From: Candidatus Omnitrophota bacterium
GTDB taxonomy: Bacteria > Omnitrophota > Gorgyraeia > Gygaellales > Profunditerraquicolaceae
Assembly: GCA_028715415.1 (NCBI GenBank)
Contig: JAQURX010000010.1
Span: 3,668-67,667 of the forward strand
Length of the DNA: 64,000 nt
Direction of reading: 5' to 3'
Shown piece by piece: positions 8,163-40,404 of this stretch. How positions within the stretch are numbered: position 1 is the stretch's first letter; every line of letters starts with the position of its first letter. The notes beneath the pieces were generated by a model. It had not been told where the DNA came from. It saw nothing but the letters and a program-made list of their open reading frames with translations, and searched no databases. The position numbers were made by a program, and so were the translations under genes.

Positions 8163-8171
8163 AAATTCCTC

Positions 8172-9578: not shown

Positions 9579-9632
9579 AGTTGGTTAATTGTATCATACA
9601 TGTAAAATCAACTCAATATCTAATCTTAATGA

Positions 9633-9839: not shown

Positions 9840-9871
9840 ACCCACTAAGCATATTTAATCATTAAAATCAT

Positions 9872-9899
9872 TTGAAATATCATTTAAATACTATATAAT
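9872..9899 (+). promoter_or_regulatory. Sigma70-like promoter TTGAAA-16 nt-TATAAT for the CDF transporter gene
   Basis: TTGAAA 9872-9877, TATAAT 9894-9899, ATG at 9907; very short leader without SD. Confidence 0.45.
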
Positions 9900-9906
9900 T
9901 ACTAAC

Positions 9907-10785: not shown

Positions 10786-10786
10786 T

Positions 10787-11929: not shown

Positions 11930-11937
11930 ACTTTTAT

Positions 11938-12426
11938 TTACTGAAGAAATTGCAGCGGGTCCTGAGGGATACCGTCTTTTCTTACCTCAAAATGCAGATG
12001 CGGGAGGATGTCTCTATAATTGGCATTCCCTGTTTTCCCAACCTTTCCTATAACTTGCCCTTGCCGAATAAACTGCCCTTTAAAAACAAGTATTTCTGAA
12101 AGGTGGCCATATATTGTAGTAATATTCCCTCGGTGACGGATTACAACATATTTACCCATTCCGCGATTTTGCTTCGCAGAAACAACTCTCCCCCAACGGC
12201 TGGAGAAAATAGGAGTACCTACTTCTGCCAAAAGATCAATCCCGTTATGCAACCTATTTCCGCTGCGGTTTGCGGCAAAATGTCCTTCTCCGTGGTTGTC
12301 ACAACGGATAACAATGCCATTCTCATATTTAATAGGACAAACAAAATTACTGCTGCCCAGAAAATAAACGGTTGCTAAAAGATAAATTGGCAAAATAATA
12401 ACTAATATAAGTAATATTTTTTTCAT
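11938..12426 (-). CDS. M23 family metallopeptidase (LytM domain)
   Basis: HxxxD...HxH-type motifs (LHNGIDL; HLHFEV), signal/TM at the N-terminus. Likely start ATG at 12426, overlapping the lnt stop as ATGA. Confidence 0.75.
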   Translation of the reverse strand: MKKILLILVIILPIYLLATVYFLGSSNFVCPIKYENGIVIRCDNHGEGHFAANRSGNRLHNGIDLLAEVGTPIFSSRWGRVVSAKQNRGMGKYVVIRHRGNITTIYGHLSEILVFKGQFIRQGQVIGKVGKTGNANYRDILPHLHFEVRKDGIPQDPLQFLQ

Positions 12427-16864: not shown

Positions 16865-16868
16865 TTTT

Positions 16869-17973
16869 TTACCTTAAAGTTTTTTGCATTTTTAAATACG
16901 CTTCAATAAATTCATCTATGCCGCCGTCTAACACTTTGTTGCCATCCCCTGTCTCAAAATCCGTACGATGGTCTTTTACCATAGTATAAGGATGCAATAC
17001 GTAAGAACGAATCTGGCTGCCCCATTCTATTCTTTTCTTAAGAGCGCCATACTGCTTTTGCAACTCTTCTTCTTTCTTCTGCCTCTCCTGCTCATAAATG
17101 CGTGCTTTTAAAATTTTTAAGGCAGTTTGTTTATTTTGATGCTGGGAGCGCTCATTCTGGCATTGCGCAACAATACCAGTTGGAATATGTGTAATTCTAA
17201 CGGCTGAATCCGTAGTATTAACGCTCTGTCCGCCGGCACCCTTTGACCGATACACATCAATACGTAAATCAGTTTCTACCAATTTTATATCTATCCCTTC
17301 CTCTACTTCGGGGATAACATCTACTGAAGCAAAAGAAGTGTGCCTTCTCTTATTTGCGTCAAACGGAGAAATCCGCACAAGCCTATGCACGCCGCGCTCG
17401 GCCTTAAGATAACCATAGGCGTATTCTCCTTCAATTAAAAATGTAATATTTTTAATACCGGCTTCTTCGCCATGAAGGATATCTATTGTCCTGACACTAT
17501 AGCCGTGCCTTTCGGCAAAACGGCTGTACATCCGGCTAAGCATATTTACCCAGTCACATGCTTCTGTGCCGCCCGCTCCGGCATTGATACTTAAAATTGC
17601 ATTACTTATATCAAATTCTTCCCCCAAAAGAACATTAAATTCCATTTTATCAAGCTCTTTTGAAAGAATCTCTATATTATTATTTATATCGGAGATTAAT
17701 TCCTGGTCTTCAGAGTTAAGGATTCCGGTAAGCTCTTGTAACTCATGGAATTTCTTTGAGGCTATCTCCCATGGTTCAACGCTAAACTTTAAAACTTTAA
17801 GTTGTTTTACTACCTTGTTTGCTGAATCCTGATTATCCCAGAAACCGGGCTGCACCATCCGGTTTGATAATTCTTCAATCTGTTTCTTTTTATTTTCAAT
17901 GTCAAAGATAACCTCTTAAACTCTGCAAATGGGTATCTATCGATTTAATTTTTGATTTTATCTCTTCTAACAT
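16869..17973 (-). CDS. prfB: Peptide chain release factor 2, with programmed +1 ribosomal frameshift
   Basis: Frame 0: [23 protein letters not shown] then TGA (AGAGGT TAT CTT TGA C, complement of 17901-17917), the canonical RF2 SD-like/CUU UGA C recoding site. The +1 frame continues [23 protein letters not shown]... into the 329-aa ORF carrying SPF and GGQ motifs. Confidence 0.9.
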
Positions 17974-17988
17974 TATGCCTCCAAAGTT

Positions 17989-19074
17989 TTAAGTCTTTCT
18001 AATTCCTTTTAGAGCTAGGACAAACTCATCCTTATTATCCGCGGTCTTCATCGCATCTTCTTCGCTGATTTTCCCTTCCCTTACCAATTTAATTAGCGAC
18101 TGATTGAATGACTGCATCCCGTAAACAGCGCCTTCCTCAATATACTGGGGAATCTCCCAGACTTTTCCTTCCCTGATCAAGCGGCTTATCGTCGGGGTCA
18201 AAAGCATAACTTCGTAAGCTGGAATACGCCCTATCCCATCTTTAGCAGGGACAAGCCTTAACGAAATTACACCCTTTAACAATTGAGCAAGTTGATTTCT
18301 CATTTCCTGATGCTGGTGAGGCTGGAAAAAATTAATAATTCTTTCTACGCTTTGAGAAGCATTCACGGTGTGCAAAGTGCTTAAGACCAATACCCCAGTT
18401 TCTGCGGCATTCATCCCAGCAAACATAGTTTCATAATCTCTGATATTACTGATGTACATAACATCGGGGCTTTGCAAAGTAAAAGCGCGAAGGGCTACCG
18501 CATATGACTCAACATCAAGGCTAATCTCTCTCTGGTTAATTATTGATTTCTTGTCTTTAAAAGTAAATTCTATCGGCTCTTCAACAGTTAAAACATGTTT
18601 AAAAGCATTGACGTTAATGTATTCAATCATACTTGCAATCGTCGTAGATTTGCCGCTTCCCATGCTTCCCGTTAAAAGAACCAAACCACGGGACTCCATA
18701 GACAATTTTCTTAAAACTTCAAACGGAAGGTTTAATTCTTCAAATGATTTTATTGAATTATTTATGTTTCTTACAACGATTGAAGGCCAGTTTCTCTGCA
18801 TAAATATATCAACACGGAACCTGCGGTCAAATTCCGGCAAGTAGATTGCAAAATCAATATCCAGCTTTCTCTTGAATCTTTCTCTCTGTTCAGGGGTAGT
18901 CAACTCTTCTACGGCCCTCATTACATCGTCAACGCTAAGAATAGTATTCTCAATTATCTCAACCCTTGCATCAACTCTGATGCGGGGGCTTCCTCCTGCG
19001 CGAAAGAAGATATCAGAACCATTGCGCTCTACCATTATTTTTAGTAATTCTTTTATTTTCATTTTTTCCTCCAA
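17989..19074 (-). CDS. pilT: PilT-family twitching-motility ATPase
   Basis: 361 aa, Walker A GSMGSGKST, PilT/PilU family architecture; no pilB/pilC nearby. Confidence 0.75.
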   Translation of the reverse strand: MEEKMKIKELLKIMVERNGSDIFFRAGGSPRIRVDARVEIIENTILSVDDVMRAVEELTTPEQRERFKRKLDIDFAIYLPEFDRRFRVDIFMQRNWPSIVVRNINNSIKSFEELNLPFEVLRKLSMESRGLVLLTGSMGSGKSTTIASMIEYINVNAFKHVLTVEEPIEFTFKDKKSIINQREISLDVESYAVALRAFTLQSPDVMYISNIRDYETMFAGMNAAETGVLVLSTLHTVNASQSVERIINFFQPHQHQEMRNQLAQLLKGVISLRLVPAKDGIGRIPAYEVMLLTPTISRLIREGKVWEIPQYIEEGAVYGMQSFNQSLIKLVREGKISEEDAMKTADNKDEFVLALKGIRKT

Positions 19075-19081
19075 AGGGACA

Positions 19082-20572
19082 TTATACCACTTTCCTTATT
19101 TTTTCCGTAACATTAAATTGCATGTATTTTGCCATCATAAGCCTCGTCTGAGCATCTAAAGCAGGAGTTGAGCCTAAAATTATAATAATAATCGGCACCA
19201 GCGCCCATTCTATAACCATTATGATATTCTTAGTCCAGCTTATTTCTTTTGGCCTTGGCGGAAGCGTAGTCCTACTTAATACTATCCAGGCAAGGCTGGT
19301 TGCAAGAGTAAAGTTCAAAAGAAGCCCGGTTATCTTTGGAAGATTATAACCGATTGCCATCTGGCTAAAGAATTTTCCTCCCAATAAAAGAGGTAAAGGC
19401 GCTATAAGTATAAGAACAATTGCCCAGATTGCCCAGGTAACATGGCCTTCTAAAAGGTGAAACGACCTTCTTATCTTTTTCATTAAAGGCATTTCCCTAT
19501 CTTTAATAAAACCCATAACAACAAATGGGAAATTCTCAACTCCCCACGCCCATCTTCTTTTCTGCTTATATTGAATCATAATCGTCTTAAAGAAACTATT
19601 GGAATAAGCCACATCCATGGAAACAGTCAAATAAAGCGGGACGACATGGTAATTTCCCTTATAAAAAAGAAATGCCTTCCAATAGATTACAGAATCATCG
19701 CTTATCATATCGACCGGCCAGTAATCGATATCGACCAAAGTCTTAAAACTCATGCTATGGCTGGAAAAAGTTACAAATTTCTCAAGGCGCATACTTTCAA
19801 TAAGCTGAGAGAATGAAGAGCTGATTTCAACTAAACGCGCGAAAGAAGGCGCTTGCCAAATATTATTGTTGTAAACCGGCATCGGCTGATAACTTGCCTG
19901 ATGGGGGAGCGGATTAGTAAGAAAATGATATGTTAAGCAACCAAAGTATTCTTTTTCAACACAGGTATCCGCGTCAAAACAGGAAACTATGACAAATTCA
20001 TCTTTAATGCCTTTTGTGTTTAAAAACATTTTGGCATGTTTCGCCGCCCATGTAGCGTTTGCCCCTTTTGTACGGGTTTCTCCAGGGATACCATCGGGAT
20101 GGCTTGTAGAAATCAAAGCAAAAAAGTGTTTTTTGAATTCGTGTTCTAAGATATCAGCGTTAACCTTTGAATCTTTGTTGCGTTCTTCAAAAGCCAAAAC
20201 CACAATCATTTTATCCAAGGGATAATTGGAATTCTTTAATGCTTCCAGGGAGGTACGTAATATTTCCGGGGTCTCTTTGTAAATAGGAAAAATTACCAAA
20301 TGGTACATTTTCTCCCATTTTTTGTCCTTGGTCAATTGCTGGCAAGGCTTGAGCCAATTCTTGTCTTTTTCCACTCTTAGCTTACGGTAAGCCATAAGCA
20401 AGAGAGTGGTAAGATAAGATGTGCGGATGATCCAATAGAAATCAAATACAATAATAGATATAGCACAGGCAACCGGCTTAAAAACAGCCAGGAAAAGAAA
20501 AAACACAATAATACTCCACGATAAAGCTCCGGGGATAATTTCCAATATTCTTTTTGTCCTATCAACTTCCAT
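19082..20572 (-). CDS. Membrane-embedded processive family-2 glycosyltransferase (cellulose/chitin/hyaluronan-synthase-like)
   Basis: 496 aa, N- and C-terminal TM clusters, DxD-like (CFDADT) and Q(Q/R)xRW motif (QYKQKRRWAWG). Confidence 0.65.
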   Translation of the reverse strand: MEVDRTKRILEIIPGALSWSIIVFFLFLAVFKPVACAISIIVFDFYWIIRTSYLTTLLLMAYRKLRVEKDKNWLKPCQQLTKDKKWEKMYHLVIFPIYKETPEILRTSLEALKNSNYPLDKMIVVLAFEERNKDSKVNADILEHEFKKHFFALISTSHPDGIPGETRTKGANATWAAKHAKMFLNTKGIKDEFVIVSCFDADTCVEKEYFGCLTYHFLTNPLPHQASYQPMPVYNNNIWQAPSFARLVEISSSFSQLIESMRLEKFVTFSSHSMSFKTLVDIDYWPVDMISDDSVIYWKAFLFYKGNYHVVPLYLTVSMDVAYSNSFFKTIMIQYKQKRRWAWGVENFPFVVMGFIKDREMPLMKKIRRSFHLLEGHVTWAIWAIVLILIAPLPLLLGGKFFSQMAIGYNLPKITGLLLNFTLATSLAWIVLSRTTLPPRPKEISWTKNIIMVIEWALVPIIIIILGSTPALDAQTRLMMAKYMQFNVTEKIRKVV

Positions 20573-21507
20573 TACTTTTCCTTCGGTTTGATTAAGTTAA
20601 TAAACGGTGAAGATTTCGGGTTTAAATCCAATTTATAGACATTATCGTAAAGCCTGTCGTCTTCCGCTTTCTGGGAATCTATGAAGTAAAGGACATCATT
20701 GCGTTCATCATAAAAGCTGGAAACATTCCTTTTGTTAAGAGTGATTAAAGTAACAGGAGCGGCCGCTGCCTTTGCCTCAAGGACTTCGATATTCTTATCT
20801 GTTACCAGGATAAAATGGTAGCTATCCGAATGCCAGAATAAATCGATAATCCTTTGGTTTTCATTTTCGATTATAATTTCAGGATCGGTATAATAATCTT
20901 TATTACGCACCGCAAGAAGAGAAACAGCCACCTGGCGGTAATCAAAACATAATACTTTCTCCCTGTCCGGGGAGATTTTCCATTTCTTGGGATTTTTTAC
21001 AGTATCCGGCAAAATACCTATTTCGGTAAAATGCCCGCCGTCAAGGTCAGAGATGTAAATTAAATTATCCGTATCCGAAGAATAATAAATCTTCTCCTTC
21101 TCTTTATCCAACCAGAACGAAGAAATACTGTCTTTATTAAGCTGCTTTATGTTTGAACGCAAGGGAAAGAATATTATCTTTTCAAGACGGGAAACCTTTC
21201 CGGCATCTACGTTTATTTCGCCAAACCAATCATAATATTTTTCGAGGCTAAGCCTGACATTGTAATTACCCGGCAATAATTCTTGAATTGTTGCAGGTGT
21301 TTTTTCATTTAATAATCTATTATCAAAATAAATACTCGCCCCTGATGGTTGAGTCTTTATTACGATTAACCCGGTTTTGGTAAATTTTAAAGTCTTGGTA
21401 TTGAATTTATACCCTAAGGCAAAAGATAATATAAGCGGCAAGCCCGCTACAAAAATAAAAACGCTTACATAAAATAAAACTGCCCTTATTCTTTGCTCTG
21501 CAGACAC
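20572..21507 (-). CDS. PEGA-domain membrane-anchored protein
   Basis: N-terminal TM, PEGA-like segment (IKTQPSGASIYFDN...TPATIQELLPGNYNVRL), beta-rich C-terminus. Confidence 0.45.
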   Translation of the reverse strand: MSAEQRIRAVLFYVSVFIFVAGLPLILSFALGYKFNTKTLKFTKTGLIVIKTQPSGASIYFDNRLLNEKTPATIQELLPGNYNVRLSLEKYYDWFGEINVDAGKVSRLEKIIFFPLRSNIKQLNKDSISSFWLDKEKEKIYYSSDTDNLIYISDLDGGHFTEIGILPDTVKNPKKWKISPDREKVLCFDYRQVAVSLLAVRNKDYYTDPEIIIENENQRIIDLFWHSDSYHFILVTDKNIEVLEAKAAAAPVTLITLNKRNVSSFYDERNDVLYFIDSQKAEDDRLYDNVYKLDLNPKSSPFINLIKPKEK

Positions 21508-21764
21508 TCTACGATTTTCCTTTCTAAATCCAAAATCTTCTTTTTATTCTTAACTCCCCAGCGATACCCGCCAATCTTTCCGGAAGAAGCAACTACCCGA
21601 TGGCAAGGGATAATTACGGGGAATTGATTTTTATTTAAAATTTGCCCAACTGCGCGGCTTGCCTTTGGCCTGCCGGCTTTTGTTGCAACTTGCTTGTAGG
21701 TGCGCACTTCTCCGACAGGAATATTTAAAACCGCTTTGAAAACTTTTCTTTGAAATTCAGTCAT
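21486..21764 (-). CDS. ogt: Methylated-DNA-[protein]-cysteine S-methyltransferase (C-terminal active domain only)
   Basis: 92 aa with active-site PCHRV and the DNA-binding wing. Confidence 0.7.
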   Translation of the reverse strand: MTEFQRKVFKAVLNIPVGEVRTYKQVATKAGRPKASRAVGQILNKNQFPVIIPCHRVVASSGKIGGYRWGVKNKKKILDLERKIVECLQSKE

Positions 21765-23000
21765 TTATTTGCCAATTACTTTCTTTCTTCTTAACACGTG
21801 ATGATAGGCAACAGCAAACCTGTGCGCTTCATCTCTTACACGTCTTATTAAATTTAACGCAGGCGTATCTGACTTTAATTTAATAGGAAAAACCTTGTAT
21901 CTAGTATATATATTTTCCCTGTCTTTAGCAATACTCATTAGAGGTATATTTAACCTCAAATTACTTAACTGAGAATCGGCTACGGCAAGATGTGCCTTGC
22001 CTCCATCTATAAGGATTAAATCCGGAAGAGGTAATTTCTCCTGAATGAGGCGTGAATAACGCCTATATACAATCTCTTTAATCATTCCGTAATCGTCAAC
22101 CCCTTTTACCGTCTTAATGCGAAACCTTCGGTAATTGCTTTTATCGGGAGTGCCTTTATAAAAACTAACCATCGACCCACATGCCTCTTTACCTGAAATA
22201 TTTGAAATATCAAAAGCCTCTATTCTCTCAGGAGCTGTTTCTAATTTCAGCAGGTTTTTTAAATCATCCAATTCAAACTGGCGGGAATTTCCTGCCTGAA
22301 TTGATCCTAACGAACTTAATGCGTTTATCTGGTCGCGCAATTGGGCTGCCTCTTCATATTTATGCTCTTTAGAACAAATATTCATCTGCCTTGAGAGCTT
22401 CTTAACCAATTCCTCTGCCCGGCCTTCGAGGATCAAACGGATATTATTAACGGTCTTGGCATAATCACTTTTGCTAATTTTTCCGATGCAAGGCGCAGGA
22501 GACAAACCGATCCTGTAATAAATACAAGCTCTCTTCGGTAATTTTCTGCAGGTTCGATAAGGAAAACATTTTCTTAGAATTTCTAACGCTGCTTTTAATA
22601 ATGCAGCACCCGTATAAGGCCCTAGGTAAATTGCACCGTCATTCTCTTTTTTTCTTGTGATATAAATTGCGGGGAATTCTTCATTTGTAATCTTAACCAT
22701 GGGGAAACTTTTATCATCGCGCAGCAAAACATTGTATTTAGGTTTAAACTGATGCACGAGGCTTGCCTCAAGCAATAAAGCCAAGCTTTCCGTTGGTGTC
22801 AGCCTATATTCGATGTCTGCGACATTTGACATGAGGGCTACTGTCTTTGAAGAAAGGTCTCGCCCCAAATAATTGCTTACTCTTTTTCTTAATGAATTGG
22901 CTTTACCGATATAAATAATCTTTCCGGAGCTATCTTTCATAAGATATACCCCCGGCGCATCCGGCAAACCAGCTATTTTTTGTTTAAGAGTCATACTCAT
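21765..23000 (-). CDS. uvrC: Excinuclease ABC subunit C homologue lacking the C-terminal (HhH)2 domain
   Basis: GIY-YIG N-terminus (GVYLMKDSSGKIIYIGKANSLRKR), UvrC RNaseH-like endonuclease region (LILIDGGKAHL...RDEAHRFA); 411 aa versus about 600 aa for canonical UvrC. Confidence 0.7.
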   Translation of the reverse strand: MSMTLKQKIAGLPDAPGVYLMKDSSGKIIYIGKANSLRKRVSNYLGRDLSSKTVALMSNVADIEYRLTPTESLALLLEASLVHQFKPKYNVLLRDDKSFPMVKITNEEFPAIYITRKKENDGAIYLGPYTGAALLKAALEILRKCFPYRTCRKLPKRACIYYRIGLSPAPCIGKISKSDYAKTVNNIRLILEGRAEELVKKLSRQMNICSKEHKYEEAAQLRDQINALSSLGSIQAGNSRQFELDDLKNLLKLETAPERIEAFDISNISGKEACGSMVSFYKGTPDKSNYRRFRIKTVKGVDDYGMIKEIVYRRYSRLIQEKLPLPDLILIDGGKAHLAVADSQLSNLRLNIPLMSIAKDRENIYTRYKVFPIKLKSDTPALNLIRRVRDEAHRFAVAYHHVLRRKKVIGK

Positions 23001-23037
23001 CTTATTACGGTTTCGCGTCTGTCTTGTCTTTTGTTTT

Positions 23038-23156
23038 CTCGGGGACGCTTATTTTGCCCCTGCGAGGCAAAATTTCGCTCCCCTGCGGTGCCTCGCTCTG
23101 CCTACATTCTATTTAGCGGGGCAACCGTGCCCGCTCGGCATCCTCGGAGGCCCCGA
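23038..23156. other. GC-rich structured intergenic element with mutually exclusive hairpins (candidate regulatory RNA/ncRNA)
   Basis: H1 ATTTTGCC-cctgcga-GGCAAAAT (23051-23073) competes with H2 GCGAGGC...GCCTCGC (23062-23096); H3 AGCGGGGcaaccgtGCCCGCT (23115-23135); outer CTCGGGG/CCCCGAt closure. GC content far above the flanks. Confidence 0.35.
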
Positions 23157-23208
23157 TAAAACAAAAGCCAAACCATCCGCTGAAAACAATTACTTATAAC
23201 TTTATAAT

Positions 23209-24741
23209 TTAATGAAGTGCCCTTAAATCATCTTCTACAGTCTTAGCTTTAAGAATAAATCCACTCTGAAGATACAGCATCTTTGATTTTTTATATGCTT
23301 CTTTTGCCGAAACAATATCACCAGTTATTTTATCAAGAGTTCCAATAATACGATAAATACCCGGATCTTCAGGATTAATCTCTGTAGCTTTTTTTAAATA
23401 AGACGTAGATTTCTCAAAATCAGTATCTGCATATACTAAGCTTAAAGAAAGAAGAGCATTTATATAATCGGGATTCAACTGTAGTGCTTTCTCAAAATAT
23501 TCTATTCCTTGCTGCTTTTTTCCTATATTTACAAGGCCATTGCCCAGCATTACCATTAAATCAACAGCATTTGGCATTAAATCTAATGATTTTTTTAAGT
23601 AAGTTATGCCTTTTTCTGAATCATCTAAACGCAAATACAAATCTCCAAGATTAGCATAAACGGCTGGATCGGTGGGATTAATTTGCATTGCCTTTTCATA
23701 ATAATCCTTAGCCTGTAAAAGTTGATCCAAATATACAGATAATAAGCCAAGAGTGTTATAGACATCTACATTTTTAGGGTTTATTTCAATAACTTTCTTG
23801 AGAAGCTCTACCGACTGTTTAAAATCATCTCGAAACATACATCTTTCTGCCTCTGAATAATAATAATCTGCCCGGCTTACAGTCTCTACAAATTGTTGGA
23901 TACTCATTTTGGAAGTAGTGGTAATCAAAGGCTTAATTGTATTAATCGCAAGAGCAAAATTTAAGTTTTGCCCCCCCTGCATCAAAAAAGTTACAATTCC
24001 TAGAACTTCACCTTTAGAATTTATAAGCGGCCCACCACTATTCCCCGGAGAAATAGGTGCACTAAACTGTAAATATTTTAATTTGTTATATTCTCGCACT
24101 CCCGAAAGTAATCCATCTGAAAAAGTATATTCCAAACCCAAAGGATTTCCGATTACATATATTTTATCCCCTATGTACGCAGAATCTGAATTGCCCAAAA
24201 GAATAGTGGGTAAATCATCTGCTTCTATCTTAAATATACAAATATCAAATCTGGCATCATAATATATTATTCCAGTGACAGGGTAGCTTTTACCATTTTT
24301 AAATTTAACATTTATCTCTTTGGATAACTTAGTCACATGAAAATTAGTTACAACTATACCTTTGGGATCTACTACAAAACCACTTCCTAGGTATTCTTCT
24401 CCAGCTAATGTTTTATTAGTAATGTAGACAACGGCCGGGCTTATGCTTTCGAAGATATCACGAGGGGAATTTTGGGATAGGGATTCTTTGGCTTTAGAAA
24501 TAGAGTTCCCATCAATACTCTTAATATCATTTAGAAAATAGGGCACCTGCACTCCATAGAAATCCACCTTTATATATTTATCTGTTCTTTCAACTATTTT
24601 TCCTTCTACTGTCTTTCCTGATTTAAGGACGATGGTTTCAGCAAAAACGAGGCTTGAAAAACATAAGCTAAATAGTAATATTAAGCTTAACAATCTTCCA
24701 TTCTTCATCTTCCTCTCCTTAATTAACAATAAAACCTTCAA
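23209..24741 (-). CDS. Secreted trypsin-like serine protease (S1) fused to C-terminal TPR repeats
   Basis: Catalytic triad context GSGFVVDPKGIVVTNFHV / DICIFKI / GNSGGPLINSKGEVLGI; about 200-aa TPR region at the C-terminus; signal peptide at the second Met. Confidence 0.75.
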   Translation of the reverse strand: MKVLLLIKERKMKNGRLLSLILLFSLCFSSLVFAETIVLKSGKTVEGKIVERTDKYIKVDFYGVQVPYFLNDIKSIDGNSISKAKESLSQNSPRDIFESISPAVVYITNKTLAGEEYLGSGFVVDPKGIVVTNFHVTKLSKEINVKFKNGKSYPVTGIIYYDARFDICIFKIEADDLPTILLGNSDSAYIGDKIYVIGNPLGLEYTFSDGLLSGVREYNKLKYLQFSAPISPGNSGGPLINSKGEVLGIVTFLMQGGQNLNFALAINTIKPLITTTSKMSIQQFVETVSRADYYYSEAERCMFRDDFKQSVELLKKVIEINPKNVDVYNTLGLLSVYLDQLLQAKDYYEKAMQINPTDPAVYANLGDLYLRLDDSEKGITYLKKSLDLMPNAVDLMVMLGNGLVNIGKKQQGIEYFEKALQLNPDYINALLSLSLVYADTDFEKSTSYLKKATEINPEDPGIYRIIGTLDKITGDIVSAKEAYKKSKMLYLQSGFILKAKTVEDDLRALH

Positions 24742-24744
24742 GAA

Positions 24745-25023
24745 TTAAATAATCTCCGCTGTTTCTGAAGCATTGTCTTCATCCCGAAAAAATTGAATAT
24801 CTACTATCTGTCCCTGCTTTATTGAATTAACAAAATTATTAATATGAAAATGGCAATCCCCATCTTTCTTTAAAAGATTCTCAAGGTAATTGATTAATTT
24901 TAATACATCATTCTTCTTTAGGCTTATTGAGCCTGAATACGCTGGAAGTTCGTGTTCTTTTGATTTCCCCATACCGCTATTTATAGTTATTTGCATTCCA
25001 AGCTCCTTTTCTTTAACACCCAC
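24745..25023 (-). CDS. Hypothetical protein
   Basis: 92-aa ORF overlapping the murJ start; no recognisable motif. Confidence 0.25.
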   Translation of the reverse strand: MGVKEKELGMQITINSGMGKSKEHELPAYSGSISLKKNDVLKLINYLENLLKKDGDCHFHINNFVNSIKQGQIVDIQFFRDEDNASETAEII

Positions 25024-26579
25024 CTATACAAATCGCGCATTTCGGAAACACGAAAGATAAAACAAAAAACAATGTAAGAAATAAACCCGAGCAGCAAAAT
25101 AATCCCTAAGTTAACAAACCTGCCCACATAACCAACACAACAGACAAAATTATATTTAGAAATAAAAACGCAAACTACGCCCATGCAAATACTAGCTGCT
25201 AATATCTTAATCAGCGAATTAATCACCCTTGCAATCTCAAAATCTCCCAGCTTCTTTTTTAACAAAACTACCATCAGAACAAAAGTTACAGTTCCGGAAA
25301 TTGAGGTTGCTAAAGCAATGCCTGCGATCTTTAATGGATACATAAATACAAAATTAAGAATAATATTTAAAATAAGTGCCAAAAATGCTAGCTTCATCGG
25401 AGTAACCGTATCTTTTAATGCAAAGAAGCAAGATTGCAGCACTTTTGTTGCTCCATATGCAAATAATCCAATGCTAAAATAGAAAAGCGCATCGGCAGTA
25501 AGTATTGAAGAGGCTGTGTCAAACCTTCCTCCCTGAAAAATACTTGTAACAATAATTTTAGATAATGACATAAACGCAGCTGAAGCAGGTATTAGCACAA
25601 ATGCAATTGCACGCAAGCCCCACGAAAGCGTTTTTCTCAATTTACTTAAATCATCCTCTAAAGCTTGCACAGAAAATGTAGGCAATATCGCCTGAGAAAG
25701 CGCAAAACTAAAAATCCCTAATGGAAACTGAATCAATCTATATGAAAAATATAACACTGCAACTCCGCCATCGCCTACAATCCAAGCCAGAGAGCCGAAG
25801 ATTGAATCTACAAAATTATTTAGCTGATAAATACCGGAACTAAAAACCCGTGGCACCATCAACTTACCGATAGTTTTAGCTGCCGGATGTTTAAAGCGCT
25901 TAAATAAATTGAGCCGAAAACCTTTTTTGTATAAAACCGGGATCTGTATAGCTAGCTGTAAAACTCCGCCAACCAAAACACCAAGAGCCAAACCTTTTAT
26001 CCCCTCTCCAAAGAGAAGCGCAAAGACAATTATGGAAATATTTAACAAACATGGAGCAAAAGCAGGCACAGCAAAATGCTTGAGCGAGTTTAATATGCCC
26101 ATGGAGTATGCGGCAAGGCTGATTAAGAGAATATATGGAAAGATAATCCTGTTTAATCTAATTGTAACTTCCAACTTATCAGGAAACGCAATAAATCCCG
26201 GAGCAATCAAACGCACAATCACAGGAGAGAATATAATTCCCAGGATTGTAATTAAGGAGACAACCACCAAAAGCAGATTTAAAACCACGTTTGCCAGCTC
26301 CCAAAACTCCTCCTTGGTGTGCTTTGCATTATATTCGCTAAAAACAGGCACAATCGCGGCATTGCTCGCACCCTCTCCAACCAAATCCCTGAATAAATTG
26401 GGTATTTTAAAGGCAATAACGAATGCCTGAGCATAGATATAAACGCCAAAAAGCCGGGCAATGATGATATCCCGGATAAATCCAAGCACTCTTGAGCAAA
26501 AAGTAGCAAAGCCAATGACTCCTGCTGACTTTGCTATTGCCTTGTGCTCCTTATGATGGCTGGTTTTGTCTGTTGACAT
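24987..26579 (-). CDS. murJ: Lipid II flippase MurJ (MviN)
   Basis: 530 aa, 14 TM; N-terminal RDIIIARLFG...NLFRDL..EGA..AA.VPV MurJ signature. Confidence 0.85.
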   Translation of the reverse strand: MSTDKTSHHKEHKAIAKSAGVIGFATFCSRVLGFIRDIIIARLFGVYIYAQAFVIAFKIPNLFRDLVGEGASNAAIVPVFSEYNAKHTKEEFWELANVVLNLLLVVVSLITILGIIFSPVIVRLIAPGFIAFPDKLEVTIRLNRIIFPYILLISLAAYSMGILNSLKHFAVPAFAPCLLNISIIVFALLFGEGIKGLALGVLVGGVLQLAIQIPVLYKKGFRLNLFKRFKHPAAKTIGKLMVPRVFSSGIYQLNNFVDSIFGSLAWIVGDGGVAVLYFSYRLIQFPLGIFSFALSQAILPTFSVQALEDDLSKLRKTLSWGLRAIAFVLIPASAAFMSLSKIIVTSIFQGGRFDTASSILTADALFYFSIGLFAYGATKVLQSCFFALKDTVTPMKLAFLALILNIILNFVFMYPLKIAGIALATSISGTVTFVLMVVLLKKKLGDFEIARVINSLIKILAASICMGVVCVFISKYNFVCCVGYVGRFVNLGIILLLGFISYIVFCFIFRVSEMRDLYRWVLKKRSLECK

Positions 26580-29074: not shown

Positions 29075-29109
29075 AAATTTGGGAATTTGTCAACGGAAGG
29101 TAATAAAAA

Positions 29110-29172
29110 AGAGGCGTCTATTTGATAGGCCAAGTTATCACCGATTGATAAACTTAGGCTGGAGACGCCCCT
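29110..29172 (-). terminator. Long imperfect hairpin + T-tract downstream of the giant gene (also T-run on the plus strand; likely bidirectional terminator)
   Basis: GAGGCGTCT...GGAGACGCC stem closing 29112-29168, followed by TTTTTT on plus and TCTTTTTTATT on minus. Confidence 0.45.
29140..29154. repeat. 15-bp element ACCGATTGATAAACT, 3'-UTR copy of an inverted repeat that flanks the giant gene
   Basis: Exact reverse complement of 33712-33726. Confidence 0.8.
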
Positions 29173-29175
29173 TTT

Positions 29176-32100
29176 TTAAATTCTTTTTCCCAATAAAGCT
29201 ACTCTTAAATCCTGCTCCGAAACTGCTGAATCAATAACTACCAGAATATCCTTAAGGCCTGAATCTGTGGCACAGCACCGCTCTTCTTCCATCCTTAAGA
29301 TATCCGCAATACAAGAGATTACTTTATCAATGTCTCTGTCAATATTACCTTTGTAACAGGAAGCCTGGAGGTATTCCTTGATCCTGTCAGATGAAGGAAC
29401 TATGCCTGAATTAACCAGATTCTCTATTTCCCTCCATTCTGAATTAAGGTTTATATCATTAAGCCTGCTTGCGGATGGATTACCAATGTTAACGCTTAGG
29501 CTGCTTATGGCTTGAGTAACTATTGGTAGATGACGAAAATCGATTCCGCCGAAACTTTTAGTAGCCTGTATAAGCTTTGCTTCAGGGACAACATTTCTTT
29601 CCAATTCTGGACTTTCAATAATTTTTGATTTTTGGCTCAATAAACTAACGACCCTTTTGCTGCCATCTTTCTCTTTATCTGAATACCAATCTGAACTATT
29701 CAATATTCTTTTTGCCTCTTTCAGGACAATCTTCTTAGAATTAGAAGATAACCGCTCCAAAATAAGTTCTGCCTGCTGGCCAACAATATCTAATGGACAA
29801 GCCTGAGCTATGATCAAAATATCTACCAAATTACTTCCCAACTTTGTTTTCTCAAGCTCTACTTCACCTTTTCTTGCCAATTCATACAATTCATCAAACG
29901 TTCTGCTATTATTTACGCTCCAAAAAATTCCTTCGATTGCTCTCCTGTCATCGCGCCCTGCTTCTTCTTCCCATAAATCTCTTGAAAGATACACTTCAAC
30001 AATAGCCCCCAATCCAAGATATGCTAAAGGAGTACCGTTCTTCCTTTCTTCCTCAAAGATACGATCCCAAAATCCTTTAGCTTGCGGCAATATTGCCTTC
30101 ACTACAATTTTCTGAGCACCAATCTTCTGAGCATACTCTCTTGCTGCAGACCAAAGGCCTCGGCCAATTCCCTTATCTCTGAATCTTGAAAAAACCAAAA
30201 TATCAAAAACACTCAAATAAACTCTATCCCCATATACTTCCTTAACACAAGTAATAAAACCGGCGACTTCCCCATTTTCCAAATAAACAAGATATTCATT
30301 ATTCGGATTGCCAAAAGCTTCTTGAAGTTTTTCATAAGACTTTTTTTCCGTTTCTTTATTTACCATTGCAAGATAAGAAGCAATCTGACGAATATATAAT
30401 TCATTACCTCTCACTGGCCAAACATTACCTGTTTTCTTCCTCGCAACATCCTCCTTTTGCTCTACCCTAAGAATATCCTCCATTTGCCTTGCCAATTCAT
30501 GAGCATCTTCTGGTGATATCTCCGAATGCATTTCAGCAACCCACTTAGCCATCGCTTCATGGCCAAGCCCAGCTAATATCAAACGTAAGTCATTGTTATG
30601 CCCTGCCAAATACTGATCACCTATGAATATTCTGTTACCAAGCCTTACGGGCCCGTTGATAGACCTACCGTCTAATCTTTTCATAAAAGGCTCGGCTACA
30701 ACTATTACTTCAGCGCCATTAATCCTTCCCGGGCCAAATTTATCTTCCAGCTCTTTAACTATATCCTTAGGCAAAGCTATACGCCTGGCTCCGCTTGAAT
30801 CTGCTAATCTTTGTATTGCCTCAACATCTTCTCTTGTAACATCACCTTCCAGAGCATGATCTTCATTTTTATTAGTAGGCGTAACTTTTAAACCAATGAC
30901 TGCTTTTGTCTGGCCTCCTCGAAGATCATTCTTCCCTTTGTTATATCTACTTTCTATCTCTGTAGCAAACCGATTAAAAGTGCTATAAGGAACTTCATCC
31001 TGCTGGAAATCACTCCTTAACTCATTTAACACCTCAACCGATATTCTAAAAATCCGGTCCCAATTTACGCCTTGAGGGTTACTACGGATTATCCTTGCAA
31101 GCGCTGCTCTGCCAGGAGTATGGGTATCTTCAATGCTCTTATCATTAGGCTTATTTTCCCAATTGGCAGAATGCTTTTCATATTTTGAATTAGCTGTTAT
31201 TCTTTTAACGGCATCATTGAATAAATTATTATCGCCTATTATGGATCTTAAAGATTTAAATCCATAAATATCGCATAAAAATTCATGCATAGCAGCCATG
31301 TTTTGATTAGTTAAGGTCTGATTAAATCCTTTGGAATAAAGCAATTTATGCATTGCTTCATGCGCAAAAGACCAAAAAGTTTGGTAGGAATAACCTATCC
31401 TATTTAATCCCATTACACCGACAGAATAAGCTCCTTCTATATACGCATTAAGCCGGAATGAAGACGCTGCCTTCAACAACATTGTCGTTTCTCCGCTCTC
31501 TTTAGGCAAAAGAGGCTCCGAATTCATAAGGATTGCGAACATTAGAAAATATGATTGTAATTTTGGCTCTCCAGCCAATACCAAGTCTTCGCGCAAAATA
31601 TTCTGTATTTTATTGCTTCCGCTTTCCCTGAAGAATTTTTCTGCTAAATATTGCCAATCTTCTCCTTTAATGATTTTATTTATTTCTGTTAAGTTTTGGT
31701 CTAAAAGCAAACAGGTTAATCCCAAAGCATAAGCTCTTAATTCAACAGGCATTGATTTATCTTGCCTTATACTATCTATGAATTTACGATCGTTTCTTAA
31801 GTGATACAAAATAAGATATCCGAAATCAGGGTGTTGTTTAATAAATTCTTTTGCTCCCCGGCTTTCATTTTTTGACAGAATATTAACGACTTGTTTTTGC
31901 AGGCTAATATCTGGAGTCAATAAGCCTACTAGTTTTTCTCTTTGATGGGGATAATTGTACAAAAGATTATGCAGCGCTAATGCAGACCTACGCCACAATA
32001 CACTATCTTTAGATGTCGATTTATAAGTATCTACTAGGGCATTTATCGCGAAAACATAGCCATTCTCCGCAAACCATTCAAGATGAGAATACGGAAGCCG

Positions 32101-33699
32101 TCCGAGATCTTCAACTGTAACGCCTTCTTCTTCTAACTTCACCAATGCACTAAATAACCTCTCAAAAGCATGGACCACCGGAGAGCTTTCATATTTGAAG
32201 GCAAATGTATCTGGATACTTAACCAAACGAAATAGTAAATCTAAAGCTATGTATCTTATTCTTTCCTGCTCCTTATTGGTCGTTTTGGAACGGATAATTT
32301 GTTCAAGCTTGGGGATTAATTGAAAAACTTGCCTTAACGCAGCAGGATCATTTTGAGCCTTGATTCCAAGATTAATCAGATCCTTTGCGAAAAGCTCCTT
32401 CTTATTTATCGATGGCGCAGGTTTGCTTGCAGGTATTGCTGCTAGCGCCGTAATCTTAGGTGGCTCTTCCAAAACCTTTACTTTAAACTCTGGCTGGGCA
32501 GCGCCGGATGCTTCTGTTAAAGATAACAATACCAACAAAGGAAATAAAAACTTTTTTCCTTTCCTGAAGATTTCGGATATTGTTCCGTTGGATGGGGACA
32601 AAGTTATGCGAGCCCCTGTTTTAGGATCAGTAAAAGTCTCTGCGCCAAAAGGGGGCATATTTGGCGCGATCCCGCTAATACCCCCCGAGAAATAACTCCT
32701 TATTACCTGCCCGTAGAGTGTATTTACCGAATCTTTAATATTGTATTCACCGTCTTTGAATGATTTCTGGTAAGCTTCGAAATAAGTAGATTTTGACCAG
32801 GATTCTTTGGAAGCAAGGTTTGAAGTAATAACATTCCTATCTATCAGCTTGGAATACGGATTATTTTGGCTGGAAAATCTCGACTTAAACCACTGCGCCA
32901 TGATAAGAGAATAATAAACCTGTCTTAACTGGGCATAGCGCTTTGAAGTATTAATCTCTTTGGTTAACTTTGGGATAATCAAATCCCTGATCAATTGGGA
33001 TGCGTATTCATTTAATTCTTTTAGCCTGTCATCCTTAAAGTTATAAGTTGCTGAATTCTTAAGATAATCCTGTTCCAAGCAAACCTTAAGAGTTGCCTTG
33101 TAGATATAAGCTGAGTCTTTAGTCTCACGGATAATAATCTCATCGGGAATTATCCAAGGGCGGGTTAATGTTGGGATAGTAACTTCCTCTGAACCAAAAA
33201 GCTCCCCTGCTTTTTTGTAAAGTTTGTCCCAATACTCTTTTCCTTCAGGTGTCTGTGGAGAAGTAAATCGTGCAGTATCCTTTTTAAGCTCAACGTCTGA
33301 AGCAAGCATGATCTTGCCGATTTCGGTCTGAGCAAGGTTGTCATCAATAATATCGTCTTCGGCGTCAGGACGCAGATTCACCCAGAAGCTCTCATTAGGA
33401 AGGGTTAATCCGATAAGAAAATAATCTAAAAGTATTTTACCTGAATCCTCTAACTCCTGATTGGAATGATCTTTAAGGCTTCCTTTATCAACGAGTATAT
33501 TAAAATTGTTGTTTAGGCTGTCGAAGGAAAGATATCTTAAGTGCAGGGGACGATAAACATCAGGAATTAACGTATTGCGCAATAAAGACAGACTCCCGGC
33601 AATGTCCAGCTGTCCGGCTACCTGGGCAAAACCGGATTGCTCAAATATAAGCAAAAAACAAAGCAAAAAAGCGAGTATTCTAGTAAGTTTTGTCTGCAT
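29176..33699 (-). CDS. Giant secreted multidomain protein (1507 aa) with embedded GNAT acetyltransferase domain and HExxH motif; function unknown
   Basis: Signal peptide MQTKLTRILAFLLCFLLIFEQSGFA; internal hydrophobic helix FLFPLLVLLSLTEASGAA; helical-repeat region; SFAHEAMHKLL...AAMHEF (HExxH + downstream E); GNAT motif A FRDKGIGRGLWSAAREYA with preceding beta-strand block; long C-terminal region with no recognisable motif. Confidence 0.8.
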   Translation of the reverse strand: MQTKLTRILAFLLCFLLIFEQSGFAQVAGQLDIAGSLSLLRNTLIPDVYRPLHLRYLSFDSLNNNFNILVDKGSLKDHSNQELEDSGKILLDYFLIGLTLPNESFWVNLRPDAEDDIIDDNLAQTEIGKIMLASDVELKKDTARFTSPQTPEGKEYWDKLYKKAGELFGSEEVTIPTLTRPWIIPDEIIIRETKDSAYIYKATLKVCLEQDYLKNSATYNFKDDRLKELNEYASQLIRDLIIPKLTKEINTSKRYAQLRQVYYSLIMAQWFKSRFSSQNNPYSKLIDRNVITSNLASKESWSKSTYFEAYQKSFKDGEYNIKDSVNTLYGQVIRSYFSGGISGIAPNMPPFGAETFTDPKTGARITLSPSNGTISEIFRKGKKFLFPLLVLLSLTEASGAAQPEFKVKVLEEPPKITALAAIPASKPAPSINKKELFAKDLINLGIKAQNDPAALRQVFQLIPKLEQIIRSKTTNKEQERIRYIALDLLFRLVKYPDTFAFKYESSPVVHAFERLFSALVKLEEEGVTVEDLGRLPYSHLEWFAENGYVFAINALVDTYKSTSKDSVLWRRSALALHNLLYNYPHQREKLVGLLTPDISLQKQVVNILSKNESRGAKEFIKQHPDFGYLILYHLRNDRKFIDSIRQDKSMPVELRAYALGLTCLLLDQNLTEINKIIKGEDWQYLAEKFFRESGSNKIQNILREDLVLAGEPKLQSYFLMFAILMNSEPLLPKESGETTMLLKAASSFRLNAYIEGAYSVGVMGLNRIGYSYQTFWSFAHEAMHKLLYSKGFNQTLTNQNMAAMHEFLCDIYGFKSLRSIIGDNNLFNDAVKRITANSKYEKHSANWENKPNDKSIEDTHTPGRAALARIIRSNPQGVNWDRIFRISVEVLNELRSDFQQDEVPYSTFNRFATEIESRYNKGKNDLRGGQTKAVIGLKVTPTNKNEDHALEGDVTREDVEAIQRLADSSGARRIALPKDIVKELEDKFGPGRINGAEVIVVAEPFMKRLDGRSINGPVRLGNRIFIGDQYLAGHNNDLRLILAGLGHEAMAKWVAEMHSEISPEDAHELARQMEDILRVEQKEDVARKKTGNVWPVRGNELYIRQIASYLAMVNKETEKKSYEKLQEAFGNPNNEYLVYLENGEVAGFITCVKEVYGDRVYLSVFDILVFSRFRDKGIGRGLWSAAREYAQKIGAQKIVVKAILPQAKGFWDRIFEEERKNGTPLAYLGLGAIVEVYLSRDLWEEEAGRDDRRAIEGIFWSVNNSRTFDELYELARKGEVELEKTKLGSNLVDILIIAQACPLDIVGQQAELILERLSSNSKKIVLKEAKRILNSSDWYSDKEKDGSKRVVSLLSQKSKIIESPELERNVVPEAKLIQATKSFGGIDFRHLPIVTQAISSLSVNIGNPSASRLNDINLNSEWREIENLVNSGIVPSSDRIKEYLQASCYKGNIDRDIDKVISCIADILRMEEERCCATDSGLKDILVVIDSAVSEQDLRVALLGKRI

Positions 33700-33726: not shown

Positions 33727-33794
33727 AATATAAATATATATTATTAATAATATATTACAATGCGATATCAGGGGGTTTTTGAAAGGGTTTTCTT

Positions 33795-39458: not shown

Positions 39459-39531
39459 GGGGCTGTAGCTCAGCTGGGAGAGCACTTGCATGGCATGCAA
39501 GGGGTCAGGAGTTCAATCCTCCTCAGCTCCA
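39459..39531 (+). tRNA. tRNA-Ala (anticodon GGC)
   Basis: Cloverleaf folded by hand: acceptor GGGGCTG/CAGCTCC with the G3:U70 Ala identity pair, anticodon loop atGGCat, TTCAATC T-loop, 73 nt, CCA not encoded. Confidence 0.85.
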
Positions 39532-39620
39532 CAAAATTTTTCGGACAACGAAAAATTTTGTGGCACTGAAGCGAGCGTTAAACGGCGCGACAAGCGCCGT
39601 AGCGAGCGGGAGTGCCACAA
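39529..39620 (+). other. Highly structured inter-tRNA spacer: 14-bp hairpin CACAAAATTTTTCG-gacaa-CGAAAAATTTTGTG plus GC-rich nested hairpin (GTGGCACT...AGTGCCAC enclosing ACGGCGC-gacaa-GCGCCGT); both apical loops GACAA
   Basis: Inverted repeats read directly from the sequence. Confidence 0.4.
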
Positions 39621-39631
39621 ATTATTCTTTC

Positions 39632-39714
39632 GCCGGAGTGGCGGAATGGCAGACGCAGCAGCCTCAAAAGCTGCCGAGGGCAACCTCATGGGGGTTCAAG
39701 TCCCTTCTCCGGCA
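39632..39714 (+). tRNA. tRNA-Leu (anticodon CAA), class II with long variable arm
   Basis: Acceptor GCCGGAG/CTCCGGC, anticodon loop ctCAAaa, 16-nt variable arm CGAGGGCAACCTCATG, discriminator A; 83 nt. Confidence 0.8.
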
Positions 39715-39720
39715 TTTTTT

Positions 39721-40404
39721 ATGAATAAAACTAAGCGCATTCAATGGACGCATGAACTCGCTTACGCTGTTGGCCTCATCACCACTGACGGGAATTTATC
39801 CCCAGACAAAAGACATATTCAATTTACAACTACAGACCACCAACTCGCCGAACAGTTCAATAGATGCTTAAACATTAACAGCAAAATCCAATTAACCCCT
39901 CCCTCTGGCTTTGGTAAAAAATCTGCATATAGAATTAATTTTAGCAATGTAAAACTATACAGGTGGCTTGAACAAATCGGCTTAAAACCAAGAAAAACAC
40001 ATTCTCTGGGAATAATAAAAACTCCTAAGAAATACTTTCCTGATTTTTTAAGAGGACATTTGGATGGCGATGGTTCAATATTTACCTATAAAGATAAATA
40101 TATGAACTACAAAAGACGCCGTTATACATACTCGCGCACATATACGGCATTTAATTCTAGTTCTTTTAAACACATCAATTGGATCAGAAATAATTTAAGG
40201 AAAGAATTAAATATTAAAGGGGCTTTAAATTCTTGGCTAAAACCGGAAAGAACTGTACCATTGTGGACACTAAGATTTGCTAAAAAAGACTCGTTTAAAT
40301 TATTACGCTGGCTCTACTATAAACCCAATCTATCATGTTTATCCCGCAAAAGAGAAATTGCTGAACAATTTCTAAAAAGCATTCATAAGAATATTAGAAT
40401 TTAA
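39721..40404 (+). CDS. Free-standing double-motif LAGLIDADG homing-endonuclease-family protein
   Basis: MNKTKRIQWTHELAYAVGLITTDGNL (motif 1) and FLRGHLDGDGSI (motif 2) about 100 aa apart, the single-chain LAGLIDADG architecture. ATG at 39721 is 7 nt after the tRNA-Leu 3' end. The ORF-track entry 39490..40404 is an artefactual upstream extension across the tRNAs. Confidence 0.8.
   Translation: MNKTKRIQWTHELAYAVGLITTDGNLSPDKRHIQFTTTDHQLAEQFNRCLNINSKIQLTPPSGFGKKSAYRINFSNVKLYRWLEQIGLKPRKTHSLGIIKTPKKYFPDFLRGHLDGDGSIFTYKDKYMNYKRRRYTYSRTYTAFNSSSFKHINWIRNNLRKELNIKGALNSWLKPERTVPLWTLRFAKKDSFKLLRWLYYKPNLSCLSRKREIAEQFLKSIHKNIRI

Follow-up and report, generated by a model that had tools for sequence, protein, structure and literature searches.

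MARTX toxins, made by Vibrio and its relatives, carry conserved ends that flank swappable effector domains in need of host-cytosol cofactors, and their length scales with their cargo. Secreted effectors of the GNAT superfamily, such as Eis of Mycobacterium tuberculosis and VipF of Legionella, are exported and use host acetyl-CoA; to our knowledge, this use is the only established way in which a GNAT outside the cytoplasm makes biochemical sense. Here we examine a GNAT-containing protein of 1507 aa encoded in a 64,000-nucleotide (nt) window of a Candidatus Omnitrophota bacterium genome (assembly GCA_028715415.1, contig JAQURX010000010.1, positions 3,668 to 67,667 of the forward strand; all coordinates of this genome below are those of the window). 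Omnitrophota are abundant, uncultured nanobacteria thought to be parasites or predators (PMC10066038; 10.1101/2023.11.21.568195). Their giant proteins (the 'Archaeovorins' and the dockerin type) are defined by a length of at least 10–30 thousand aa, Pfam content, C39/S8 peptidase domains and neighbours resembling the type II secretion system (T2SS) or Tad (10.1101/2023.11.21.568195; 10.64898/2026.06.07.730766). We show that the protein studied here is one paralogue in a very large family, restricted to Omnitrophota, in which constant ends bracket differing enzyme cargo. This 'bookend' family is apparently undescribed. In what follows, P-numbers denote fetched proteins (n = 208) and L-numbers denote genomic loci.

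A full-length homology search retrieved hundreds of Omnitrophota proteins of 840–2,600 aa that match about one-quarter of the query at 58–72% identity and carry very different Pfam domains. When 120 BLAST hits were mapped onto the query, only aa 1 to about 345 (58–72% identity) and about 1384–1505 (45–70% identity) were common to the family; we refer to these as the N-module and the C-module. An exhaustive HMMER search with aa 1–380 against 1.84 billion cluster representatives (50% identity clusters) located the N-module in 7,467 representatives, 5,649 of them at E ≤ 1e-30, and always at the N terminus. The first-pass annotation of this DNA had singled out a secreted giant; as a one-off, that description does not hold, given the number of clusters and a median length among the fetched members of 1,541 aa, which makes the protein average-sized for its family. 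Among the best 150 matches listed, members reach 6,439 aa. The shortest complete member (P0136, 609 aa) consists of an N-module, a linker of about 140 aa rich in Pro, Ala, Ser and Glu, and a C-module, and across the family the middle grows from a linker of this kind to over 6,000 aa of various enzymes.

Both modules are present in 171 of the 208 fetched proteins. The same plan was found in two independent sets of 80 loci each, one drawn from GTDB species genomes and the other from JGI metagenomes, in which the confirmed relatives number at least 505. Every ORF (open reading frame) that is complete within its locus in the GTDB set opens with the N-module and closes with the C-module; 31 ORFs have both, and those without a C-module run off the end of the locus or are split by a frameshift or stop. 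In the metagenome set, 41 of 48 complete ORFs start and end in this way, and the seven exceptions lie mostly near contig ends. At L004 (5898–9656) and L022 (6001–9885), a frameshift or stop breaks the family gene into two or three ORFs, which may reflect pseudogenes or errors of assembly.

The borders of the variable region are marked by short motifs. R-x-[YF]-x-[ST]-G-G closes the N-module in 205 of 207 proteins, and G-G-[IVL]-D-[FLM] opens the C-module in 170 of 207, at a median of 124 residues from the C terminus; the linkers beside these motifs are enriched in Ser, Pro, Ala and Gly, the one after the N-module being of low complexity and the one before the C-module rich in Ser and Pro. The protein under study belongs to the family on both sides, with RSYFSGG at aa 334–340 closing its first 340 residues and GGIDF at aa 1384, 124 aa before its C terminus. 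The source records are Omnitrophota metagenome-assembled genomes (MAGs), apart from a few labelled Planctomycetales, Thermodesulfovibrionia or Margulisiibacteriota, which are taken to be mislabelled or misbinned. Several genomes have two to four detectable copies; as few patterns were scanned for, the range of one to four per genome is a minimum. A tblastn search with the N, C and middle portions detected no paralogue elsewhere in the window, and the C-module alone as a query retrieved only short contig-end fragments.

Sequence conservation in the modules is high: an alignment of 60 N-modules contains 75 invariant columns. Paralogues within a genome share 57–90% N-module identity (mean 69%), as against a mean of 65% between genomes; N-module divergence has thus reached a floor set by selection, a few recent duplications aside. 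Two Cys residues of the C-module are conserved in 82% and 90% of members, and the N-module has no conserved Cys. Neither module has a match in Pfam (for the isolated modules even at E ≤ 10), NCBIfam, PADLOC or PHROGs, and comparison with PDB sequences by phmmer and profile returned only matches to the GNAT domain and low-complexity noise. Foldseek against PDB structures gave a best E value of 0.11 (NheA, TM-score 0.12), which is no evidence of kinship, and the structural neighbours of the C-module were only designed or TPR-like helical bundles. The modules are not described in Seymour et al. 2023 (PMC10066038) and are absent from West-Roberts et al. 2023 (10.1101/2023.11.21.568195) and a 2026 preprint (10.64898/2026.06.07.730766); a full-text search for the border-motif strings found nothing relevant. 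An invariant GG stands at both borders of the variable region (SGG and GGIDF), which makes processing of the double-glycine/C39 type an attractive but speculative lead.

Between these ends, the precomputed Pfam assignments of members span a wide range of enzymes: FHA with metallophosphatase, S-adenosylmethionine (SAM) methyltransferases, CheR, radical SAM/B12-binding, GGDEF, HATPase_c, Ser/Thr kinases, NUDIX, HD, DnaJ, NDK, NAD-glutamate dehydrogenase, PPDK-like, GT1 glycosyltransferase, CN-hydrolase, M20, M23 and M48 peptidases, TPR/HEAT and GNAT. About one-quarter of members (51/202) also have a hydrophobic segment 40–120 residues past the N-module. The mean net charge of these internal segments is +1.3 over the eight residues before and −0.4 over the 12 after, and A-x-A-like motifs often follow; judged by charge, their polarity is that of signal peptides and not of stop-transfer segments. 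At least four to six are Tat-like (twin-arginine translocation; SRRNFLK, SRRGFLK, TRREFLK, GRRNFLK and SRRDFLG), and at P0100 Pfam TAT_signal scores above its gathering threshold. Internal Tat signals follow the N-module in P0100 (aa 392–410), P0113 (aa 387–405), P0051, P0073, P0149 and P0195; these members already begin with a Sec-type signal, and a weak GGDEF match follows in P0100 and P0113. In the simplest reading, cargo has often been captured as whole pre-protein genes that entered the linker of a minimal N-linker-C ancestor in frame; the relic Sec and Tat signals would then be accounted for.

The features of the protein and its gene are listed in Table 1.

Table 1. Features of the ORF and its flanks, in window coordinates
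Feature	Residues	Position	Strand	Remarks
Whole ORF	1–1507	29176..33699	minus	1507 aa plus stop, ATG start; full-length bookend family member
Sec-type signal peptide	1–25	33625..33699	minus	MQTKLTR / ILAFLLCFLLIF / EQSGFA↓Q; cleavage (↓) inferred
Constant N-module	26–340	32680..33624	minus	alpha/beta fold, ends in invariant R-x-Y-x-S-G-G
Internal signal-peptide-like segment	379–402	32494..32565	minus	RKGKK-FLFPLLVLLSL-TEASGAAQ
Cargo module 1	433–923	30931..32403	minus	no family assignment; putative gluzincin site inside
HExxH/ExxxD site	780–810	31270..31362	minus	HEAMH, 21 residues, E-F-L-C-D; metal-ligand reading inferred
Cargo module 2	939–1094	30418..30885	minus	small shuffled module; EG, FGP, R-x-G and L-x-HE-x-MA-x-W motifs
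GNAT acetyltransferase domain	1118–1212	30064..30348	minus	PF00583 E 3.7e-10, PF13673 E 2.2e-6
End of GNAT and variable spacer	1213–1383	29551..30063	minus	no Pfam match
Constant C-module	1384–1507	29179..29550	minus	GGIDFRxLPIVTQ, then all-helical bundle, two conserved Cys; extreme C terminus
Terminator-like hairpin		29104..29178	minus	16-nt arms, A/U tracts at flanks, begins at stop codon
Promoter-like site		33733..33760	minus	TTGTAA-16-TATATT, 9/12 match, AT-rich upstream spacer; not above chance

The GNAT domain reported by the first-pass annotation is well supported and is the sole Pfam domain of this protein. For the long helical-repeat region in the same annotation, the one hint is a HEAT-like match that stays below threshold (E 0.15). 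PF00583 covers aa 1118–1201 with 40.5 bits (cutoff 20.7), PF13673 scores 28.1 bits (cutoff 23.6), and GNATs in the PDB give weak sequence matches. The acetyl-CoA-binding P-loop, whose loss on proper alignment would have counted against the assignment, is intact: motif A reads R1174-D-K-G-I-G1179 (30163–30180) within FRDKGIGRGL and fits R/Q-x-x-G-x-G/A. Judged by profile and motif, the protein is a genuine member of the superfamily at the domain level, and it begins with a canonical-looking signal peptide. No substrate is assignable, as the best equivalog (RimI) falls far under its cutoff (22.8 versus 86.4 bits). P0120 also has a GNAT domain near its C-module, which is not detectably closer to this one than other GNATs are. 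The 270-aa region described beyond the GNAT exists and resolves into a variable spacer and the 124-aa C-module; the distal part of the spacer is common to a few members, with some BLAST alignments reaching upstream to about query positions 1303–1345.

Upstream of the GNAT, cargo module 1 has one detectable homologue, P0208 (42% identity over 503 columns, its aa 547–1042); a word-indexed search gave this protein alone and a metagenome pattern scan gave none. Gluzincins of the thermolysin/M1 type have an HExxH motif followed by a Glu about 18–24 residues on. The HEAMH...E motif noticed earlier is present as described, with HEAMH at aa 780 and the Glu 21 residues past the second His, and P0208 keeps both parts (HEITH ... 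MHEFLCDI), E806-F-L-C-D810 being identical in these two sequences. When this protein is shuffled, an HExxH turns up in 1.7% of cases. By its HExxH-x21-ExxxD spacing, module 1 is a putative gluzincin. The likeness is at the level of the motif: aa 700–930 match nothing in Pfam at E ≤ 10 and nothing among PDB sequences, and hence show no link to a recognised peptidase family or solved zincin.

P0208 is itself outside the bookend family, as it has neither constant module. It has a signal-like N terminus and two transmembrane (TM) segments around a KRKPK loop, and the positive-inside rule predicts that its homologous module is outside the cytoplasm. The gene for this stand-alone membrane protein (L082 8001–11675) lies directly after lnt and before a DUF6922/AbiEii pair. 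The L082 contig is syntenic with the window, with MurJ, UvrC, RF, SecA and Lnt 44–61% identical and in the same order; in the syntenic part of the window (12423–26579), no P0208-like gene occupies that position. The second HEAM stretch reported earlier is also present, at aa 1047, and reads HEAMA, which is not the HExxH of a zincin. It belongs to cargo module 2, a shuffled module that recurs at differing positions in P0002, P0003, P0004, P0044 and P0132.

At the other end of the chain, the signal peptide proposed by the first-pass annotation has the expected features. A hydrophobic segment (aa 8–24) is preceded by K/R and followed by GFA↓Q, with a charge of +2 before and −1 after, and would be cleaved at that point. 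Such an N-terminal segment is universal in the family, with signal-peptide charge polarity and a small-x-small c-region, and Q21, F24, A25 and Q26 are conserved in at least 90% of members. Signal and topology calls were made by simple rules (charge polarity and positive-inside). Midway along the h-region (LLCFLL) sits a Cys, Cys14 (33658–33660), that 80% of members retain. A lipoprotein reading of this residue was rejected, since the preceding L-L-L does not fit a canonical lipobox and the hydrophobic stretch extends past the Cys; a prepilin-type (class III) signal was rejected because the consensus lacks the G↓FxxxE motif.

We tentatively favour, at a little short of an even chance, a Sec-exported scaffold in which the constant ends sort, anchor or deliver swappable cargo, which would put the GNAT beyond the cytoplasm of its producer, perhaps to act in a host cell. 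The N-terminal signal would route the whole chain through Sec, with cleavage after GFA. The constant modules would then be handles by which a common machinery or surface structure sorts, anchors or delivers the protein, because they hardly vary across paralogues and species, whereas the cargo can change freely. The middle would be a swappable payload, with new cargo arriving when whole genes insert in frame in the linker. As most cargo, this GNAT included, needs acetyl-CoA, SAM, ATP, GTP or NAD, the payload would most plausibly work in the cytoplasm of another cell (host or prey) and not in the producer's periplasm. A host-dependent, possibly predatory lifestyle has been proposed for Omnitrophota (PMC10066038; 10.1101/2023.11.21.568195), and delivery fits this proposal. 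The first-pass annotation had stressed that acetyl-CoA is cytoplasmic; this paradox is real and holds family-wide, as most of the cargo consists of cofactor-dependent enzymes of cytoplasmic type. Its suggestion of an effector delivered elsewhere stays the leading reading, held with slightly less than even confidence.

Several observations weigh against export. Radical SAM, DnaJ, GGDEF, kinase and GNAT domains are normally strictly cytoplasmic, and FeS/B12 enzymes are not expected to survive passage through Sec. Cleavage and export are themselves deduced from simple sequence rules. AlphaFold2 (AF2) shows no confident packing between the N- and C-modules (predicted TM-score 0.53), and neither module resembles a known sorting domain in structure and profile comparisons. 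No secretion, injection or processing genes recur beside family genes in the two 80-locus sets, the number of copies detected per genome is modest (at least one to four), and the housekeeping neighbours in both sets, with one orthologous group by dnaA-dnaN-gyrA-glmS-rsmI, would befit a core part of the cell better than a stock of effectors.

Chief among the alternatives is a cytoplasmic, membrane-tethered enzyme scaffold, in which the N-terminal helix tethers the protein at the inner face or is untranslocated, the modules are assembly or oligomerisation domains that bring diverse enzymes together in one complex at the membrane, and the GNAT uses the cell's own acetyl-CoA. The dominance of cofactor-dependent, cytoplasmic-type enzymes in the cargo points this way, as do the location of family genes among housekeeping genes (with one orthologue in the block just named) and the lack of conserved Cys in the N-module; for similar domain sets in long proteins, the 2026 preprint (10.64898/2026.06.07.730766) prefers an interpretation on the cytoplasmic face. 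However, the K/R-flanked N terminus, acidic or neutral after the segment and ending in GFA↓Q, has the orientation of an export signal, one-quarter of members keep Sec- or Tat-type signals in front of their cargo, the P0208 homologue of module 1 is predicted to lie outside, and part of the cargo (M23 and M48 peptidases, TPR) is of kinds usual in the envelope. We regard a cytoplasmic location of this kind as somewhat unlikely.

A third possibility depends on the second hydrophobic segment, which the first-pass annotation had placed near aa 380 and which is indeed present, at aa 384–400. If this segment were a stop-transfer sequence, the protein would be a bitopic inner-membrane protein with a periplasmic or sensor N-module and with the HExxH module, GNAT and C-module in the cytoplasm. 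Two hydrophobic segments and a solution of the acetyl-CoA problem for this member recommend the idea, and a signal peptide combined with a TM segment is a common class among long Omnitrophota proteins (2026 preprint, 10.64898/2026.06.07.730766). Yet the charges (+3 before and −1 after) are reversed for stop-transfer, and the h-region has only 11 residues and includes a Pro. Residues 379–402 instead look like a complete Sec signal peptide (TEASGA↓AQ) and are probably left over from an export signal that belonged to the cargo. Across the family, comparable segments occur in only 51 of 202 members, some being bona fide Tat signals, and they are not enriched with cytoplasmic-type cargo (9/36 versus 51/202 overall); the predicted outside location of the P0208 module also conflicts with a cytoplasmic HExxH module. 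The membrane anchor with a cytoplasmic C terminus that had been suggested is thus disfavoured, and we consider it improbable for this protein. As a family-wide model, stop-transfer (N-out/C-in) was rejected because of charge polarity, frequency and the absence of correlation with cargo type.

Genomic context bears on whether the variable cargo could instead be a fast-evolving arsenal of polymorphic-toxin or mobile-element type, with the constant ends as recombination handles. This gene is flanked by ComEC/LeuRS upstream and by BamD-like, LptE, HolA and MurJ genes downstream, a neighbourhood shared by none of the loci in the two sets. Family neighbours in both sets are housekeeping genes (rsmI, glmS, gyrA, EF-G-like, pheS/T, rarA, dnaN, dnaA, pyrB/R and cyclophilin). 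An orthologous group of 25–28 loci per set (for example L023, L109 and L128) lies directly downstream of glmS-rsmI with dnaA, dnaN and gyrA nearby; it comprises very long members (>2,300 aa, running off their loci) and is probably origin-proximal and core. Judged on the sequence text alone, a gyrase-like ORF upstream of the family gene at L023 (ORF at 3–3179) seems to carry an insertion resembling an intein or homing endonuclease. Most family loci are single-copy; paralogues stand side by side in L164 (three in tandem, 2159–21073), L150 (two in tandem) and the divergent pairs of L145 and L028.

Extreme variability of cargo between constant ends, the occasional clusters of paralogues (three in L164, and those of L145 and L028) and recent lineage-specific duplications with 88–90% N-module identity are what an arsenal would produce. 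The variable part is internal, however, and not a C-terminal tip; the neighbours are syntenic housekeeping genes, and neither immunity-like small ORFs nor mobile-element genes are conserved near family genes in the two sets. The module was found in 2 of 2.9 million viral contigs, PADLOC and PHROGs gave nothing apart from the GNAT, and GC content matches the surroundings. A phage or mobile-element origin was rejected on the viral-contig count and the PADLOC and PHROGs results. The arsenal interpretation is largely refuted by context and very improbable; the housekeeping neighbours and near absence from viral contigs indicate that at least part of the family is core and vertically inherited, and not a mobile toxin arsenal.

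An assembly chimera or pseudogene is barely credible: although the sequence derives from a MAG and its middle has almost no homologues, the frame is open for 4.5 kb with canonical family ends and native composition (GC 0.38–0.39, as in the surroundings), cargo module 1 is conserved in a syntenic relative, and the identical ORF was recovered in a separate assembly. That assembly is an independent 9.3-kb Logan contig (SRR22315506) with the same neighbours, ComEC-like upstream and a BamD-like TPR protein and LptE downstream, which makes chimeric mis-assembly unlikely. The single ORF called earlier is thus real, and the mis-assembly that the first-pass annotation had raised against itself is opposed by the canonical family ends and the second assembly. 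The NCBI entry for the identical protein reads 'MAG: GNAT family N-acetyltransferase [Candidatus Omnitrophica bacterium]'.

The gene probably forms a separate transcription unit, as indicated by a hairpin with a U-run and a promoter-like site of the next gene (TTGACA-17-TAAAGT). The hairpin bears out the claim of an own terminator: its fold energy is −30 kcal/mol (z = −6.2), 0 of 200 shuffles fold as well, and a U-run follows it. The flanking inverted repeats also claimed correspond to the terminator hairpin and to AT-rich palindromes upstream. For the promoter region claimed for the gene, the upstream spacer has one 9/12 match (Table 1), in a region where promoter-like sites number 14 against 14.5 expected by chance.

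Across the window, strand bias is strong: of the 51 ORFs of at least 150 aa, 45 are minus-strand, and of the other six, four overlap a longer ORF on the opposite strand. The GC skew, negative in 31 of the 32 2-kb bins, would fit a single replichore. Among these mostly minus-strand genes is a free-standing LAGLIDADG-type ORF of 304 aa on the plus strand (39490–40404; PF14528, E 8.8e-9). At 54009–57959, two beta-ketoacyl synthase genes come after a radical SAM gene of the B12-binding type, possibly as an unusual lipid/polyketide-like cluster, and a 496-aa ORF between housekeeping genes (19082–20572, minus strand) has no Pfam match at E ≤ 1e-5.

An odd ORF has in this way become a defined family with thousands of members, two strongly constrained modules without a sequence or structure match, border motifs and a 609-aa minimal form, in which the relic Sec and Tat signals are a record of cargo capture. 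Omnitrophota pose a puzzle in their huge signal-peptide proteins packed with cytoplasmic-type enzymes, and the family makes the location of such enzymes directly testable. If the modules are delivery handles, they would represent a new secretion/effector paradigm and provide a catalogue of Omnitrophota effectors; if they are cytoplasmic scaffolds, they would represent a new way to organise multi-enzyme assemblies at the membrane. A bolder extension, which we hold to be doubtful, is that the ends define an unrecognised, phylum-wide sorting or delivery cassette, a scaffold whose linker takes up whole genes together with their signal peptides and which displays a changing set of cytoplasmic-type enzymes (GNAT, kinases, GGDEF, radical SAM and others) or injects them into host or prey cells, with the giant proteins possibly its extreme.

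Among described systems, MARTX toxins are the closest architectural analogue, as the bookend family likewise has constant arms around swappable cargo. The two differ in that the bookend protein has no RTX or glycine-rich repeats and no C80 cysteine-protease (Pfam and NCBIfam) and shows no sequence or structural similarity to MARTX; no type I secretion system (T1SS) genes lie near, either in the window or in the two locus sets, the N terminus is Sec-type and the loci are housekeeping loci. Eis and VipF are small or stand-alone proteins with other delivery routes and share no homology with the bookend GNAT protein beyond the GNAT fold. Autotransporters (type V secretion system, T5SS) end in a beta-barrel translocator, whereas the C terminus here is a helical bundle (AF2) with no Pfam autotransporter match. 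Polymorphic toxins (Rhs/CDI/LXG) combine a variable C-terminal tip with an immunity gene, whereas bookend variation is internal and the C-terminal end is constant. For the C-module, the closest logical analogue is the cargo of the type IX secretion system (T9SS) of Bacteroidota, in which a signal peptide and a C-terminal domain (CTD) of about 100 aa are found on unrelated enzymes. That CTD is described as an Ig-like beta-sandwich (PMC11285876). The C-module differs in being all-helical (AF2) and without a CTD match in NCBIfam or Pfam; T9SS cargo, moreover, has no conserved 315-aa N-module and belongs to a different phylum.

The giant proteins of Omnitrophota are defined by dockerin/TSP3 content as well as by the features given at the outset, and the protein described here, with 1507 aa, a GNAT as its only domain and no such neighbours, falls outside that definition. 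Giants and bookend proteins nevertheless come from the same phylum and draw on largely the same domains (GNAT, HATPase, radical SAM, NUDIX, GGDEF, PPDK_N, methyltransferases and TPR/HEAT). The giants likewise carry signal peptides, TM segments or both, and bookend members themselves reach at least 6,439 aa.

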